From a virus (taxonomy: Duplodnaviria; Heunggongvirae; Uroviricota; Caudoviricetes): a stretch of DNA of 5,152 nt. Under the pieces are notes generated by a model that was given only the letters and a program-made list of their open reading frames with translations, was not told the DNA's origin and made no database searches. Positions 1 to 5,093 of this stretch are shown one piece after another. Numbering within the stretch: the stretch's first letter is position 1; each line of letters begins with the position of its first letter. A program made the translations under genes and the position numbers. Where the stretch lies: IMG/VR virus record IMGVR_UViG_2713896909_000012. One strand, 5' to 3'.

Positions 1-116
1 TCAAGATGGCGCTGGCAGGCCTGAATCACAAACTGGCAGGCCACAATCTTTCCGCGCACGACATCACGGGCATACTGATTGGCAGCATTTACGTTGGGGT
101 AAGATTTCCGGCTCAT
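1..116 (-). CDS. Terminase large subunit, N-terminal fragment (continues beyond window start)
   Basis: Not in the ORF track because it is truncated. The minus-strand frame starting at ATG 116..114 stays open to position 1 (about 38 codons, [38 protein letters not shown]). The ATG overlaps the terS stop in an ATGA arrangement, as expected for translationally coupled terS-terL. Position directly downstream of terS fits terL. Confidence 0.6.
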
Positions 117-607
117 GACTCGATGATTTTCAGAAACGGGTTAGTGGCTTTCTTCTGCCCCGCCAGGCCAATCAGACGCTGGCGGCTGCTGGGGTCGAGT
201 CCGAGCATTGCCCCCGTGCTGCTCATCTCGGACTCCTGTTCTTTCTTGGCGGTCAGCTCCGGGTTTTTGACCCTGCCGCCCATTGCACCGGTAATGGTGT
301 TGCCCTGGCTGGCAATATTTTTCACGGCACGTCGCCAGAACTCATAGGCCACGCACCACCGCTCAAGCACCGCGAAGTCAGTCACGCACAGCAGGCCCTG
401 ACCGCAGAGTTCTTTGGTTGTCAGTTGCCACATGATCGTGGCGAGAGGGAGATCTTCTTCAGCGAACCACTCCGGTGGCTCAACACCTTTGATGGGCGTA
501 AAAACAGGTTCATCTTTATTCAGGGCTCGCTTGCCGGGGTTTCCGGCCAGCGCCTTGCGCGCCGTTGGCTTGGGGCGACGCCCGGAACGCCCCGCCGTTC
601 CAGCCAT
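113..607 (-). CDS. Phage terminase small subunit (P27 / Terminase_4-like)
   Basis: The N-terminus [34 protein letters not shown] matches the remembered P27-family signature (GRPPKPT..K.L.GNPGKR.LN). The track starts at a GTG (616); I prefer the in-frame ATG at 607..605, which has an AGGAG Shine-Dalgarno 8 nt upstream. Sits between the HNH gene and terL. Confidence 0.8.
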
Positions 608-616
608 ATGCGGCAC

Positions 617-732: not shown

Positions 733-1083
733 TCACTTAAGCCGTTCACGGGCCGTCTTCGCCTTATGACACGGCCAGCACAGACTCTGCAGATTACAGT
801 CGGCATCAGTGCCGCCATGCGCTTTAGGGATGATGTGGTCAACAGTTTTCGCCTCGCGCACTACACCGGCACGCAAACACAACTGACACAGGCCTTTGTC
901 ACGCTTCAGCACGCGCGCGCGGATAACGTCCCACTTCGGACCATAACCGCGCTGATGACGGGATTGTCCTGGCTTGTATTGCTTCCAGCCTTCGCTTTTG
1001 TGGCTTTCGCAATAGCCTGACGGATCAGTAGTAGTATGGCGGCAACCGCGAACGCGGCAGGCTTTTGGGGTTCGTGGTGGCAT
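733..1083 (-). CDS. HNH endonuclease (packaging-associated)
   Basis: 116 aa with the canonical HNH core CQLC...DHIIPKAHGG...N...CWPCH (two Cys pairs, His-Asn-His). Lies immediately upstream of cos and terS, the arrangement in which HNH proteins assist terminase in HK97-like phages. Weak Shine-Dalgarno. Confidence 0.85.
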   Translation of the reverse strand: MPPRTPKACRVRGCRHTTTDPSGYCESHKSEGWKQYKPGQSRHQRGYGPKWDVIRARVLKRDKGLCQLCLRAGVVREAKTVDHIIPKAHGGTDADCNLQSLCWPCHKAKTARERLK

Positions 1084-1109
1084 TGGACACTATCGTTGCT
1101 TATGTTTAT

Positions 1110-1134
1110 AAAAAAAGCCCTGCTTACGCAGGGC
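1110..1134 (-). terminator. Rho-independent terminator (minus strand) closing the AT-rich island
   Basis: Perfect 7-bp stem GCCCTGC (1117-1123) / GCAGGGC (1128-1134) with a 4-nt loop. On the minus strand it is followed by T7 (plus-strand A7 at 1110-1116). Lies 29 nt downstream of the 76-aa gene stop and just upstream of the HNH start. Confidence 0.6.
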
Positions 1135-1162
1135 ATAAAAACTCAATATTGATACTATGAAT

Positions 1163-1393
1163 CTATTCCAAATCCCAACGTGGAATATTTATTATCTTAC
1201 CAGGAGTTAAGGAAAATTTGGCTTTCTTCAATATCTCAACATTAGCATCATCAGGAATCACTAAGAAGTACGAATAGTGCATTTCTCCAGAATTCCCATG
1301 ATTCTCCTGAATATCATCTTCGCTAACTCCCGACGCTTCAAGCTCATCAACTGTGAGTCCTAAATAATCAGCTAGCTTTTGTATATCAATCAT
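1163..1393 (-). CDS. Hypothetical small acidic protein (76 aa), possible N-terminal helix-turn-helix
   Basis: Strong Shine-Dalgarno GAGGTGA 7 nt upstream of ATG 1393. The N-terminus MIDIQKLADYLGLTVDELEASG resembles a MerR/Xis/XRE-type HTH helix-turn-helix (LA..LG.T...L...G). An intact ORF in AT-rich DNA argues for real coding. Function unknown. Confidence 0.55.
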   Translation of the reverse strand: MIDIQKLADYLGLTVDELEASGVSEDDIQENHGNSGEMHYSYFLVIPDDANVEILKKAKFSLTPGKIINIPRWDLE

Positions 1394-1692
1394 TAATCAC
1401 CTCACATATCAACGATGAGGCATCATCATCACACACTCTAGCAAAAGCTTCAACTTATTGTTATTATTAAAATAATTCTATACAAATTACATCTAATGTA
1501 TATCCTATGACACGACAGGTGCGAATATTAATGACAAACAACCATCGTATTTCTCTGAAAAATGGCAAGTATCACTCATTATTCCCCATGCATCTATGTA
1601 CTCTGTTCATGGTCAAGCCATAACTATATTTAATGCAAGAATACGGAAAGTTAAACAAATAAACGTTGATACACTAACATTCCACAAACTAG

Positions 1693-1986
1693 TTATACTA
1701 ATGAAGTAGGCAATTCTTCCTCTGAAATTCCCAATACTCTCATATCGGCCCGCAATTCTGCTATAGCGCACACTTCACTATAAGATGGTGCGGACTTCTC
1801 AGGATAAAGTACATACTCAAAATGCGGCGGAGGATTGAATATTAAAACCGAATACCCAGCTTCTTGAAGGATATTTTGGACGATTGAATAATAAGGTCTA
1901 CGCTCATCAAACCAATAACATCCATTCCTTTCTATTGACGCGATTGCTTTTTTTGCGTGCTTCTTATAAACCCATGCCTTATCCAT
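1693..1986 (-). CDS. Hypothetical protein (97 aa), function unknown
   Basis: A 97-codon open frame is unlikely by chance in AT-rich sequence. An AGGGAG motif lies about 15 nt upstream of the ATG, which is long spacing. No signal peptide, transmembrane segment or motif I recognise. Confidence 0.5.
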   Translation of the reverse strand: MDKAWVYKKHAKKAIASIERNGCYWFDERRPYYSIVQNILQEAGYSVLIFNPPPHFEYVLYPEKSAPSYSEVCAIAELRADMRVLGISEEELPTSLV

Positions 1987-2004
1987 ATCCTGTCAAAAAT
2001 CTCC

Positions 2005-2034
2005 CTACGTAATTGAACAATAACACTACGTAGT
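2005..2034. promoter_or_regulatory. Operator-like pair of TACGTA palindromes in the 5' leader of the 97-aa gene
   Basis: CTACGTA at 2005-2011 and the 10-bp perfect palindrome ACTACGTAGT at 2025-2034, centres 21 bp apart (two helical turns). Lies between a candidate -10 TATAAT (minus strand, 2118..2113) and the ATG at 1986. Confidence 0.25.
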
Positions 2035-2134
2035 AGTCATACACCAGAATATCTAACATATCAATCCAGCAACATTTAATTATTTTAACTTAATCTGAAA
2101 AAGTCTTCAGTGATTATAATTTCACACCTATATA

Positions 2135-2425
2135 TCAATTCAGTAACTTTTCAGAGCCTGTGGCCAGTCTTTGGACACGCTGTTGTTGGACAATAGCTCG
2201 AATATGAGACTTGTCCGTATTACATTGCCCTAATGCAGATAACAAGCTCGCATTTAAGTTGAGACTTGCACCATACGTCAGAGGGTCTGGTATGAGCGGT
2301 ATAGGTGTTTCAGAAATCAAACTAGTTGGTAGTGGTGTAACCGGAGTGCTCACGTAAACTGTCCGCGTACTTCCGCAACCGGTCAGCAGCGGCAGCAGGC
2401 ACAGCACGTGAAGCGCAATCATCAT
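2135..2425 (-). CDS. o-spanin (Rz1-like outer-membrane lipoprotein)
   Basis: Starts at the internal Met-Met of the 152-aa track ORF, in the +1 frame of Rz. Signal peptide MMIALHVLCLLPLLTGC with lipobox LTGC, followed by a proline-rich segment (TPVTPLPTSLISETPIPLIPDP). Extends 187 nt past the Rz stop. Confidence 0.7.
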   Translation of the reverse strand: MMIALHVLCLLPLLTGCGSTRTVYVSTPVTPLPTSLISETPIPLIPDPLTYGASLNLNASLLSALGQCNTDKSHIRAIVQQQRVQRLATGSEKLLN

Positions 2426-2702
2426 TCTCAACAGCCACTTTGATATCTTCCTGGGTTCTCTGTGACTCCAGTGCGATCTGCTGTTTTGCATGCTGGTTAG
2501 CCTCCAGAACTGTATTGACGATTTGTAGTGATTGCAGGACGTTATTGGTAATGGCTGTTGCTGATTCAGCATTTCGTACAGCCTCATCAGCACGTTTCTT
2601 TTCGTGCTGATATTTGCTGTAGTAGTGGTTGGTAGACCAGATGAAAGAACCGATGACAGTAAAGAAGAATGCAGAGATAGCCAGCTTATAGCTCAACTTC
2701 AT
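2322..2702 (-). CDS. i-spanin (Rz-like inner-membrane protein)
   Basis: N-terminal transmembrane segment (LAISAFFFTVIGSFIW) followed by a charged, coiled-coil-like periplasmic domain. Start overlaps the endolysin stop by 17 nt and the Rz1 start is embedded out of frame, as is typical for spanin pairs. Confidence 0.75.
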   Translation of the reverse strand: MKLSYKLAISAFFFTVIGSFIWSTNHYYSKYQHEKKRADEAVRNAESATAITNNVLQSLQIVNTVLEANQHAKQQIALESQRTQEDIKVAVENDDCASRAVPAAAADRLRKYADSLREHSGYTTTN

Positions 2703-3162
2703 TTACCACCCCACCAGCCTCTTTAAACCGGGAAATCAGGTCACCGATTTTATGTTCATACTGACCGTAACCTGCACCAGGTAACGACGCCCAAATATTG
2801 CTGCAACGATCGATAGCCTGACGAATATCGCCGCGATCAATCATCGGTAAAGCGCCACGCTCTTTAATCTGCTGTAATGCAACAGCATCCTGGCTTTTAG
2901 GAGAGAAGTCTGTCAGCCCTAACTGCTTGCGGTAAGCATCCCACCAGCGCGAAAGAAGTTGATAACGGCCTGCAGCTGTTGATTTGAGTTTCGGGTTTAG
3001 CGTGACAAGCTTGCGAGGGTGATCGGAGTAATCAGTGAAGAGTTCTCCACCGACAATAACATCATAACCGTGGTTACGTGTCGGTTGTCGCCCGTTATCC
3101 GTTCCTTCTGACCATGCCACCATATCGAGGAAAGCTTTACGCTGGGAATTTAGTACCTGCAT
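2686..3162 (-). CDS. R: Endolysin, lambda R-like lytic transglycosylase
   Basis: 158 aa, near-identical over long stretches to lambda R as I remember it (NQRKAFLDM.AWSEGTDNGRQ.TRNHGYDVIVGGELFTDYSDHPRKLVTLNPKLKS...RYQLLSRWWDAYRKQLGL). AAGGAG Shine-Dalgarno 6-7 nt upstream, overlapping the holin stop. Confidence 0.9.
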   Translation of the reverse strand: MQVLNSQRKAFLDMVAWSEGTDNGRQPTRNHGYDVIVGGELFTDYSDHPRKLVTLNPKLKSTAAGRYQLLSRWWDAYRKQLGLTDFSPKSQDAVALQQIKERGALPMIDRGDIRQAIDRCSNIWASLPGAGYGQYEHKIGDLISRFKEAGGVVNEVEL

Positions 3163-3165
3163 AAA

Positions 3166-3501
3166 TTACTCCTTAGAGCCACCAAACTTATTACCGATTA
3201 CTCTCATTGCAGCCCCACGAATAGCATCGACCCCGATCAGCCCAACGCCGCCACCAATGGCAACAGAAAGAGATTTAGGCCATCCGACATACTCAAGAGC
3301 GGATGCAAAAGTCAGCGTCAGAGCACCACAGAGCAAAATCTCGAGCGTTTTTCGTTTCCAGCCACCACCACCGCCAAAATAGGCAATGCGCAAGCCAGCC
3401 ATAACGATCGACATAATCACTGCGCCCAGCGGCGTATCTCCACGCCACCAGCTCTGGAACAACTCCAGCCAGTCCGGCCAGGTATTTGGGTTATGAGGCA
3501 T
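3166..3501 (-). CDS. Holin (class I-like, three predicted transmembrane segments)
   Basis: Directly upstream of the endolysin. Three hydrophobic segments (PLGAVIMSIVMAGLRIAYF, LEILLCGALTLTFASALEYVGW, LSVAIGGGVGLIGVDAI) and a charged C-terminus. I place the start at ATG 3501 (GAGGTGAGAG Shine-Dalgarno upstream) and not at the track start 3597, because the extension would span the terminator at 3549-3570 and overlap the methyltransferase gene. Confidence 0.7.
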   Translation of the reverse strand: MPHNPNTWPDWLELFQSWWRGDTPLGAVIMSIVMAGLRIAYFGGGGGWKRKTLEILLCGALTLTFASALEYVGWPKSLSVAIGGGVGLIGVDAIRGAAMRVIGNKFGGSKE

Positions 3502-3548
3502 TTCGTCATCTCTCACCTCGCGATATTTGCGGGTGCTGTGTTGGAAAT

Positions 3549-3570
3549 AAAAAGGCCACGCAACGTGGCC
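3549..3570 (-). terminator. Rho-independent terminator (minus strand) after the methyltransferase gene
   Basis: Perfect 7-bp stem GGCCACG (3554-3560) / CGTGGCC (3564-3570) with a 3-nt loop. On the minus strand it is followed by TTTTTATTT. Begins 8 nt after the methyltransferase stop. Confidence 0.6.
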
Positions 3571-3577
3571 ACCAGAA

Positions 3578-4630
3578 TTATTTCCCCACCAGTTCACTTA
3601 CCTCTTTCACCGTCTGATTAAACCGCTCTGACTCAAGTTCAACACCTAACGCCCGACGCCCCAGCGCCATTGCCGCTTTTATTGTGGAACCGGATCCCAT
3701 AAAGAAATCAGCAACCAGATCGCCTGGTCGACTACTGGCACTGATTATTTGCCGGAGCATATCCGCAGGCTTCTCACACGGATGTTTACCCGGGTAGAAC
3801 TGAACGGGTTTATGCGTCCAGACGTCGGTATAAGGCACGGAAACTGATACGGAGAAATAGCGCCGGAGAGTTTTAAACTCATCCAGCAATTCAGAATATT
3901 TGCGATTCAGTGAATCATAAGATGCCACCAGCTGGTGGTGTGGTTGTTCCAGTTGTTGTTCCTGAAACTTCTCTGCCGCTATACGGGAAAACAGTGCCTG
4001 CAACTTCCGGTAGTCAGCCTCATTCGGTAACTGCCACTGACTGGCACCAAACCAGTGGGAAACCATATTTTTCTTACCAGTGGCTTCGGCAATCTGTTTT
4101 GCCGTTATACCCAGTTCGGCACGAGCATCCCTGAAATACGAAATCAGCGGTGCCATTATGTGCTGTTTGAGTTGACTTTCTTTTGCCGCATAGCCGTCAC
4201 TTTTGCCGCGATATGGTCCCTGGTAATGTTCAGCAAACAGAACGCGTTCTGTTGCGGGAAAATATGCGCGCAGACTTTCTTTATTACACCCGTTCCATCG
4301 TCCGGACGGCTTCGCCCAGATAATATGGTTAAGAACGTTGAAACGTTCACGCATCATGATCTCGATATCAGATGCGAGGCGATGTCCACAGAACAGGTAA
4401 AGGCTTCCGGCAGGTTTCAGCACCCGCCAGAACTGGGCCAGACAGTGGTCCAGCCACTTCAGGTAATCTTCGTCCCCTTTCCACTGATTGTCCCAACCGT
4501 TGGGTTTCACCTTGAAGTACGGCGGATCGGTAACAATCAGGTCAATGGAATCATCAGGCAGGGACTGAATAAAATACAGGCAATCAGCGTTGATTAAATC
4601 AACACTGTTTATTTTTACAGTATTTTTCAT
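3578..4630 (-). CDS. DNA methyltransferase (amino-MTase, N6-adenine or N4-cytosine; DPPY N-terminal, FxGxG C-terminal)
   Basis: 350 aa. Catalytic motif IV DPPY (IDLIVTDPPYF) lies near the N-terminus and AdoMet motif I FFMGSGST near the C-terminus, the beta-class order. No restriction endonuclease gene is present in the window. Weak Shine-Dalgarno. Confidence 0.85.
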   Translation of the reverse strand: MKNTVKINSVDLINADCLYFIQSLPDDSIDLIVTDPPYFKVKPNGWDNQWKGDEDYLKWLDHCLAQFWRVLKPAGSLYLFCGHRLASDIEIMMRERFNVLNHIIWAKPSGRWNGCNKESLRAYFPATERVLFAEHYQGPYRGKSDGYAAKESQLKQHIMAPLISYFRDARAELGITAKQIAEATGKKNMVSHWFGASQWQLPNEADYRKLQALFSRIAAEKFQEQQLEQPHHQLVASYDSLNRKYSELLDEFKTLRRYFSVSVSVPYTDVWTHKPVQFYPGKHPCEKPADMLRQIISASSRPGDLVADFFMGSGSTIKAAMALGRRALGVELESERFNQTVKEVSELVGK

Positions 4631-4779: not shown

Positions 4780-4974
4780 TCATTGCTGAAGGCGTCTGTA
4801 ACAGCCGAACTGGTAATCTGCCAGCCCCGCCATAACCAACTGGGTCAGTATTAACTGACAGCGTTCGCGTGAAAGATATGTGTTTTGTGCAATCTCCCCG
4901 GCCGTTGTCGGTTCGATGCTTAATTCATTAAAAACAACTTTCGCCGTTTCTGTCATATCTTGCTGTTTTAGCAT
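4780..4974 (-). CDS. Small protein (64-72 aa), possible winged-helix (FaeA/PapI-like) DNA-binding protein
   Basis: The segment TTAGEIAQNTYLSRERCQLILTQLVMAGL resembles the recognition helix of FaeA/PapI-type small regulators. The track ORF starts at 4998; I prefer the in-frame ATG at 4974, which has AGAAGGA 8 nt upstream. The family assignment is from memory and weak. Confidence 0.45.
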   Translation of the reverse strand: MLKQQDMTETAKVVFNELSIEPTTAGEIAQNTYLSRERCQLILTQLVMAGLADYQFGCYRRLQQ

Positions 4975-5093
4975 GTCTTTTTTCCTTCTGGTTAACATGA
5001 CATACCAATAACTCTTGTCTAAAAAGCCAGCAAGATAAAAAGTCAGTATTCACGATCACCAGCGTGTTTACCGTACTGCCAACATCAAGGCAC

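Follow-up and report, generated by a model that had tools for sequence, protein, structure and literature searches.

The 5,152-nt IMG/VR record IMGVR_UViG_2713896909_000012 (the window, whose coordinates are used throughout and whose genes all lie on the minus strand) contains a foreign, AT-rich segment at 1084..2210. Delimited by blastn comparison and base composition, this segment extends from the start codon of an HNH endonuclease gene to the conserved part of the Rz1 spanin gene and encodes two small proteins of 97 and 76 amino acids (aa), denoted ORF97 and ORF76 after their open reading frames (ORFs). We are highly confident that this DNA represents accessory cargo, carried in a hypervariable slot for recombination in SfV-like prophages, which have an HK97-type head and cohesive ends (cos), and that the cargo is made up of two moron units that were acquired independently and chance to adjoin: unit A (2210..1493), which carries ORF97, and unit B (1492..1108), which carries ORF76.

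The borders of the segment were defined by comparison with related phages. In blastn alignments with SfV, vB_EcoM-720R4, and vB_EcoM-689R6, homology to the window stops exactly at the start codon of the HNH gene (1083) and restarts at 2202-2211. Only 26 bp separate HNH from Rz1 in SfV; both SfV and 720R4 lack the cargo, and 689R6 has an unrelated 168-aa gene at that position. The guanine-plus-cytosine (G+C) content is 0.33 to 0.40 over 1101-2200, compared with 0.46 to 0.60 on both sides; by stretch, it stands at 0.57 at 901-1100 and climbs back to 0.42 to 0.50 past 2200. This sharp drop had been pointed out in the first-pass annotation, which was made from the sequence alone and had the foreign DNA begin at the Rz1 stop codon. 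That edge has to be corrected: the segment runs from 1084 to ~2210 and replaces the last ~25 codons of Rz1.

Other prophages fill the same slot in different ways. Of the 5,426 complete Escherichia coli genomes, 1,232 match a query that includes both flanks, with flank-to-flank distances from 927 bp (empty) up to ~2,060 bp; the cargo described here is present in 8. Among the prophages inspected, the slot holds at least five alternative cargos: a 106-aa GrlR-family protein (L036:547-867), a 168-aa hypothetical protein whose gene has its own terminator right before HNH (L035:509-1015), a 144-aa hypothetical protein (L038:577-1011), and, on the opposite strand, either a pair of proteins of 111 and 189 aa (L034:600-1605) or a 285-aa trypsin-like peptidase (L037:565-1422, in E. 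coli A21). Sensitive blastn detected the cargo in none of the deposited phage genomes and plasmids, and tblastn of the ORF76 and ORF97 proteins against 50,697 phage records yielded no match. The insertion polymorphism among related prophages that the first-pass annotation had proposed to look for thus exists, with SfV and 720R4 empty and others carrying different genes. Its view of the region as foreign accessory DNA, a moron, lodged where the spanin genes meet the HNH/cos/terminase module, is supported by the homology breaks, the rarity of the cargo, and the low G+C content.

The replaced 3' end of Rz1 (2135..2210) forms the left recombination joint. The Rz1 proteins of the window, L002, and L034-L038 align through the sequence ...CNxDKxxIRxI and then diverge into tails of 3 to 18 aa, different for each cargo variant; judging from these alignments, the C-terminal tail of Rz1 seems to be dispensable and to be used as a recombination joint. 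A 10-nt direct repeat, TTGGACA(C/A)TA, is found at both edges of the segment (1083-1092 and 2186-2195), and a third TTGGACA occurs at 2171. A target-site duplication was considered as the origin of this repeat and ruled out, given that all cargo variants diverge into unrelated sequence immediately past the HNH start codon; nor was it supported when the empty site and the other cargo sites were compared. The lack of a target-site duplication indicates that cargo is exchanged by recombination and not by transposition.

The cargo comprises two intact small ORFs on the minus strand, as originally described: ORF97 at 1986..1693 and ORF76 at 1393..1163, both of which are called by RefSeq/PGAP in E. 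coli strain 0-4. The ORF-free spacers, likewise reported at the outset, occupy 1987-2134 (148 bp) and 1394-1692 (299 bp). The proposal that the two genes make up a single cassette with one terminator is unsupported, because the ORF76 unit moves alone and relatives of ORF97 never adjoin ORF76. At the DNA level, the ORF76 unit (1492..1108) is ~80% identical to six other loci, with sharp borders and unrelated sequence outside. These loci are four metagenomic contigs (L005-L008), a phi80-like prophage (L021) with a terminase 90% identical to that of phi80, and a Fels-1-like Salmonella prophage (L022) that is 97% identical to Fels-1; ORF97 is absent from all six. Fels-1 itself lacks the ORF76 unit; L022 has its own stretch between Rz and the hairpin at the end of the unit in place of the Fels-1 counterpart, with homology returning ~40 bp past the hairpin. 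In L021, the G+C content dips around the unit as it does in the window. The four contexts of ORF76 outside E. coli have an identical Rz 3' end in common; hence, the adjacency of ORF76 and Rz in these contexts represents one linkage event rather than four.

The two halves of the cargo also differ in their divergence. Among the E. coli cargo variants, 0 of 409 bp differ in the ORF76 unit and 10 of 642 bp in the ORF97 part; computed from these counts, the chance that all ten differences would fall in the ORF97 part if they were evenly spread is ~0.007. The HNH gene diverges by 8.3% among the same variants. Since the differences in the cargo are fewer than those in HNH and are unevenly distributed between the halves, the cargo is younger than its flanks, and its halves have separate histories.

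The ORF76 unit (1108..1492) is a self-contained mobile module that consists of a leader, the gene, and a terminator and that has spread across phage backbones in Escherichia, Citrobacter, and Salmonella. The conserved noncoding leader (1394..1492) includes a -10-like hexamer, TAGAAT (1480..1475), and a Shine-Dalgarno sequence, GAGGTG (1403..1398); the strong Shine-Dalgarno context preceding ORF76 is GAGGTGATTAATG. At the other end of the unit lies an intrinsic terminator (1117..1134), GCCCTGC-GTAA-GCAGGGC followed by T7, with a 7-bp stem containing six G-C pairs, a loop of 4, and a T-run. It was correctly recognized in the initial annotation and is the sole terminator-like site in 1000-2450; the stem and the T-run are conserved in all five compared loci. 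The leader is 78 to 80% identical to those of four other loci, compared with 66 to 67% identity at third codon positions, and this higher conservation suggests that the leader has a regulatory role. A predicted hairpin (1396-1425, minus strand) that appears in the minimum free energy fold would pair CCUCAU with GUGAGG and sequester the Shine-Dalgarno sequence of ORF76. Both arms of this hairpin are invariant in all five loci, leaving no covariation to test, and the leader fold is no better than those of shuffled sequences (z = -0.99).

The product of ORF76 is an acidic (isoelectric point [pI] 4.4), soluble protein without hydrophobic segments that is represented by just four clusters among 5.8 billion proteins. 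Residues 1 to 76 match positions 1 to 76 of the 83-position phrog_31861 profile (E = 9.6e-36); this family carries no annotation, so that membership in it gives no function. Homologs of 80 aa come, by their database names, from Citrobacter and Salmonella. Compared with homologs that are 76 to 80% identical, ORF76 shows a synonymous divergence (dS) of 0.6 to 0.8 and a ratio of nonsynonymous to synonymous divergence (dN/dS) of 0.14 to 0.22, which indicates purifying selection on the protein. This ratio, together with the full-length homologs found for each of the two ORFs, bears out the original assumption that both are real genes. The structure of ORF76 was predicted with confidence, and a search with the model found no structural neighbor. 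The ORF76 cluster (P0037 and P0003) also includes a 219-aa member from a contig of 1.75 kb and a partial call of 99 aa at a contig end with a different N-terminus, both of which are probably assembly or gene-calling artifacts. In the phi80-like contexts (L005:2038-2933 and L021:6586-7487), more small genes are located between the ORF76 homolog and Nu1, encoding a protein of 181 to 183 aa with one hydrophobic segment and a very hydrophobic 67-aa protein; the low G+C content there continues to cos.

ORF97 (1693..1986) encodes a soluble 97-aa protein (pI 5.7) that belongs to an undescribed PA2723-like family. A word-based search retrieved only its own cluster, an exhaustive HMMER search yielded 12 distant representatives, all of 93 to 106 aa, and a profile search added more. 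The family shares the motifs G-x-YWF, PPxWExV, IAxxR, and a C-terminal G-x4-LP. When the family profile was compared with PA2723 of Pseudomonas aeruginosa PAO1 (PDB 6tcb), hmmsearch gave E = 0.19 over 88 of the 96 profile positions, and hhalign gave a probability of 89% and E = 2.3e-6 over 87 columns. ORF97 is therefore, as far as profile comparison can tell, a probable remote homolog of PA2723; sequence identity is only ~20 to 26%, and PA2723 lacks the PPxWE motif. A literature search for PA2723 or 6tcb found nothing. The structure predicted for ORF97 from the single sequence is of low confidence (predicted local distance difference test score, 66). The conserved R-x3-H motif of the R3H nucleic-acid-binding domain is not found in ORF97, and a narrower scan of species genomes for the ORF97 family gave no match. 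A kinship between ORF76 and ORF97, considered on account of a shared LG(I/L)..(D/E)EL motif, was rejected (hhalign probability, 2.5%).

Two AT-rich noncoding stretches accompany ORF97. The 148-bp region upstream of the gene (1987..2134) holds a TATAAT hexamer (2118..2113) and a 9-bp palindrome (2007-2035), and its RNA fold is insignificant (z = 1.42). The 200-bp spacer between ORF97 and the ORF76 unit (1493..1692) is unique: it contains no ORF longer than 52 aa and has no Rfam match, no remarkable RNA fold (z = 0.61), and no similar DNA elsewhere. An Rfam scan of the entire cassette detected no RNA element. In E. coli PCP06173 (L039), an IS3-family element is inserted exactly at the start codon of ORF97 (window 1984-1989), separating the intact gene from its upstream region; the remaining cargo is unchanged.

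The relatives of ORF97 are scattered over mobile and variable regions. The closest one (60% identity) adjoins a KilA-N gene, another resides in an integrative element together with an integrase, IS3, AlpA, and RadC, one is part of a long same-strand array of small genes, and one adjoins an orphan Dam methylase. A relative in a Proteus prophage lies at the corresponding position, flanked by the small terminase and Rz genes, on the opposite strand. In Aeromonas, a two-gene islet located directly after sucABCD encodes a 355-aa protein and a 99-aa PA2723-like protein (L044-L046:5877-7300); an insertion sequence element follows this islet in one genome. The PA2723 relative in Pseudomonas paraeruginosa is chromosomal and follows a GFA-family gene. 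On five metagenomic contigs, a 93-aa relative comes third in a conserved order, after an XVIPCD effector and a 144-aa protein; the effectors are 48% identical, and the 144-aa proteins are 82% identical. All-against-all BLASTP of the neighbors revealed no recurring partner gene. The best description of the ORF97 family is that of an accessory gene that stands alone in mobile and variable regions.

The XVIPCD proteins (L015:4682-8479 and L029:2868-5950), which are type IV secretion system (T4SS) effectors of 498 to 511 aa, have an HExxH motif near residue 95 and are preceded by an overlapping gene of 222 to 249 aa, with a lipobox in L029. The 144-aa protein that follows them contains a W..FF..GW.W...QPDFRV motif and may, from this motif, be nuclease-like. 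A toxin-like 264-aa protein of the Proteus prophage matched the L029 effector at E = 1e-4; the match to the L015 effector had E = 1.0 and there was no PDB hit, and the similarity was dismissed as chance.

The genes around the cargo place it at the junction of the lysis and packaging modules. In transcription order, the window encodes a small winged-helix-like ORF (4998..4780), an N6/N4 DNA methylase (4630..3578), a lambda-type holin (3597..3166), an endolysin (3162..2686), Rz (2702..2322), and Rz1/LysC embedded in Rz (2431..2135), and, downstream of the foreign segment, the HNH endonuclease (1083..733) and, last, a P27-type small terminase (616..113). E. coli strain 0-4 carries this DNA in an SfV-like prophage adjoining ssrA; a Q-type antiterminator is encoded upstream of it, and an HK97-type head module follows downstream. 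Alignment of the linear SfV genome puts its right end at window position 675 (~674/675) and thus the cohesive end between the HNH and small terminase genes. From the right cohesive end, the cargo is 0.4 to 1.5 kb away, which puts it within the final ~1.5 kb of packaged DNA.

By analogy with lambdoid late operons, both cargo genes would belong to a Q-antiterminated late operon in which Q-modified RNA polymerase would run from the late promoter via the lysis genes, the cargo genes, and the hairpin into the HNH and terminase genes. This location implies that ORF76 and ORF97 would be produced in the late lytic stage and that the terminator would be read through. For expression in the lysogen, weak promoters in the AT-rich leaders would be needed. 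The first-pass annotation had proposed a sigma70 -10 element at 2118..2113; the TATAAT hexamer is indeed there, without a usable -35 element, and the consensus scan did not call the site. A weak match of the promoter scan was located at 1502..1475, with its -35 outside the conserved ORF76 unit.

No transmembrane segment, lipobox, signal peptide, or catalytic motif was detected in ORF76 or ORF97. Both proteins and 13 members of the ORF97 family were scanned against Pfam, NCBIfam, PHROGs, and PADLOC, and the sole family match was that of ORF76 to phrog_31861. In PADLOC, neither ORF76 nor ORF97 had a hit at E ≤ 1, and the 13 family members had only two chance-level hits; the link to defense or anti-defense that had been suggested for this position was not found. 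No Pfam or NCBIfam immunity family was matched by ORF97 or the 13 family members. Tentatively, ORF76 and ORF97 can be read as small cytoplasmic binder or inhibitor proteins, immunity or exclusion factors rather than enzymes or virion components, because they are small, soluble, and cytoplasmic, have no catalytic motif, and travel on mobile elements. Both products would bind a protein or nucleic-acid target stoichiometrically and block it in a conflict between phage and host or between bacteria. The explanation that joins this function to the two-unit architecture has our modest preference.

Several observations weigh against this function or against a moron active in the lysogen. Two promoter-like sites were found in the region, compared with 4.8 ± 2.0 expected from shuffled sequences. 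Consensus promoter sites are thus no commoner than chance would have it and do not establish expression in the lysogen, by which a moron is usually recognized. ORF97 has an AGGA one nucleotide before its ATG, a poor Shine-Dalgarno spacing, and no terminator was found after this gene. Neither protein matches a defense, anti-defense, or immunity family. PA2723-like members are also present in seemingly ordinary chromosomal contexts in Pseudomonas and Aeromonas, a distribution that fits a housekeeping or regulatory role as well. Finally, the argument for binders or inhibitors draws only on the size and solubility of the proteins, the motifs that they lack, and their mobile context.

The more specific functions can be ranked, with anti-defense ahead of defense or exclusion, orphan immunity for ORF97, a lysis accessory role for ORF76, and a toxin-antitoxin pair. 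Anti-defense, whereby one or both proteins would inhibit host restriction or abortive infection and so help the phage at infection or induction, is unlikely in absolute terms and leads this list. ORF76 has features that would suit such a role: it is a small, acidic orphan with a confident model that resembles no structural neighbor, and it is mobile across the backbones of temperate phages. No more than ~1.5 kb separates the cargo from the right cos end, and in lambda, the right cos end is the last DNA to be packaged and the first to be ejected. The relatives of ORF97 near RadC, an integrase, and an orphan Dam methylase on integrative elements are in a typical anti-defense setting. However, these are arguments from context alone: there is no similarity to known anti-defense proteins and no promoter evidence, and the position in the late operon favors late rather than immediate expression. 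In a still more specific form, which we regard as improbable, ORF76 would be the first of a new class of small acidic phage inhibitors with an unseen fold that block host defense, and ORF97 would be a binder or neutralizer of a nucleic-acid or protein target in conflicts between mobile elements. Together with its leader and terminator, ORF76 would then form a portable unit at the end of cos phage genomes that is packaged last and ejected first.

Slightly less credible than anti-defense is a role in defense or superinfection exclusion, with the genes shielding the lysogen from other phages. The 285-aa trypsin-like peptidase that occupies this slot in E. coli A21 (L037) matches the PADLOC candidate defense system PDC-S45 (E = 7e-21), with weaker matches to the RT-protease and LmuA models, and the combination of a terminator and an AT-rich leader is compatible with a moron expressed from the prophage. 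Variable slots of prophages are known antiviral reservoirs, as in the hotspots of P2-like prophages and P4-like satellites (PMC9122126). Like those hotspots, the Rz1-HNH slot is a fixed position between conserved phage genes that accommodates many alternative cargos in E. coli prophages, at least one of which resembles a candidate defense gene. Unlike them, it belongs to an SfV-like phage and lies at another position, and ORF76 and ORF97 match no defense family. Indeed, PADLOC was negative for both proteins and for all 13 members of the ORF97 family, neither protein has an effector-type domain (nuclease, TIR, or transmembrane), and single proteins of 76 to 97 aa would be unusually small for a complete defense system.

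An orphan immunity function of ORF97, against a competitor toxin delivered by a T4SS, a type VI secretion system, or contact-dependent inhibition, is about as improbable as the new inhibitor class outlined above. The protein is small, cytoplasmic, and encoded by a stand-alone accessory gene on mobile elements, and one relative belongs to a long series of small genes, all on one strand, reminiscent of a poly-immunity island. The row of small genes downstream of the XVIPCD effectors keeps its synteny on the five contigs, where the effectors are 48% identical. Nevertheless, the ORF97 relative in this row is the second gene downstream of the effector and not the adjacent one, and the likelier cognate immunity gene for the HExxH effector is the one that overlaps the effector start and, in L029, encodes a lipobox. 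Furthermore, no toxin gene is located close to ORF97 in the window or close to its relatives in Proteus and Aeromonas, and no Pfam immunity family was matched.

It is very improbable that ORF76 is an accessory gene of the lysis cassette, such as a lysis-timing or spanin regulator. In each of the four other contexts, the gene comes directly after Rz/Rz1 and shares their strand, and in the window, too, its place in the late operon is behind the lysis genes. Those four contexts go back to the single linkage event marked by their common Rz 3' end, however, and most phages with the same lysis genes lack ORF76. The protein has no membrane or periplasmic targeting signal, and in the window the ORF97 part separates ORF76 from Rz1. 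Lastly, a toxin-antitoxin or other obligate two-gene system, which two adjacent small same-strand genes in AT-rich mobile DNA might bring to mind, has hardly any credibility and is already largely refuted by the gene distribution, with 299 bp between the genes, ORF76 present without ORF97 at at least four loci, no ORF97 relative next to ORF76, differing divergence histories, and no recurring partner gene.

Whatever the function of its proteins, the architecture of the cargo invites comparison with the morons of HK97- and lambda-type phages, reportedly described by Juhala and colleagues in 2000 and by Cumby and colleagues in 2012, an example of which is lambda bor, downstream of Rz. As in morons, the extra genes are inserted between conserved late genes, are present in only some relatives, and have a low G+C content; the ORF76 unit is compact and has its own terminator; and the location is the junction of the lysis and packaging modules. 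Unlike bor, which faces the opposite way, the cargo genes are oriented with the late operon, and their products lack a signal peptide, in contrast to the lipoprotein Bor. A promoter of their own and expression in the lysogen, as in defined morons, are only putative for the cargo genes. The region is thus a case of ordinary phage mosaicism, a classic moron situation at the lysis-packaging junction, in which the proteins themselves are undescribed and no new mechanism is demonstrated.

These findings define the junction of Rz1 and HNH in SfV-like prophages, which about one-quarter of complete E. coli genomes contain, as a multicargo slot that is practical for hunting accessory functions, and they supply two well-delimited orphan genes for functional screens. 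Through ORF97, they tie a solved structure, 6tcb, to mobile elements. If the view of ORF76 as the first of a new inhibitor class and of ORF97 as a binder or neutralizer is true, ORF97 would provide the first function for the structurally solved PA2723 family.

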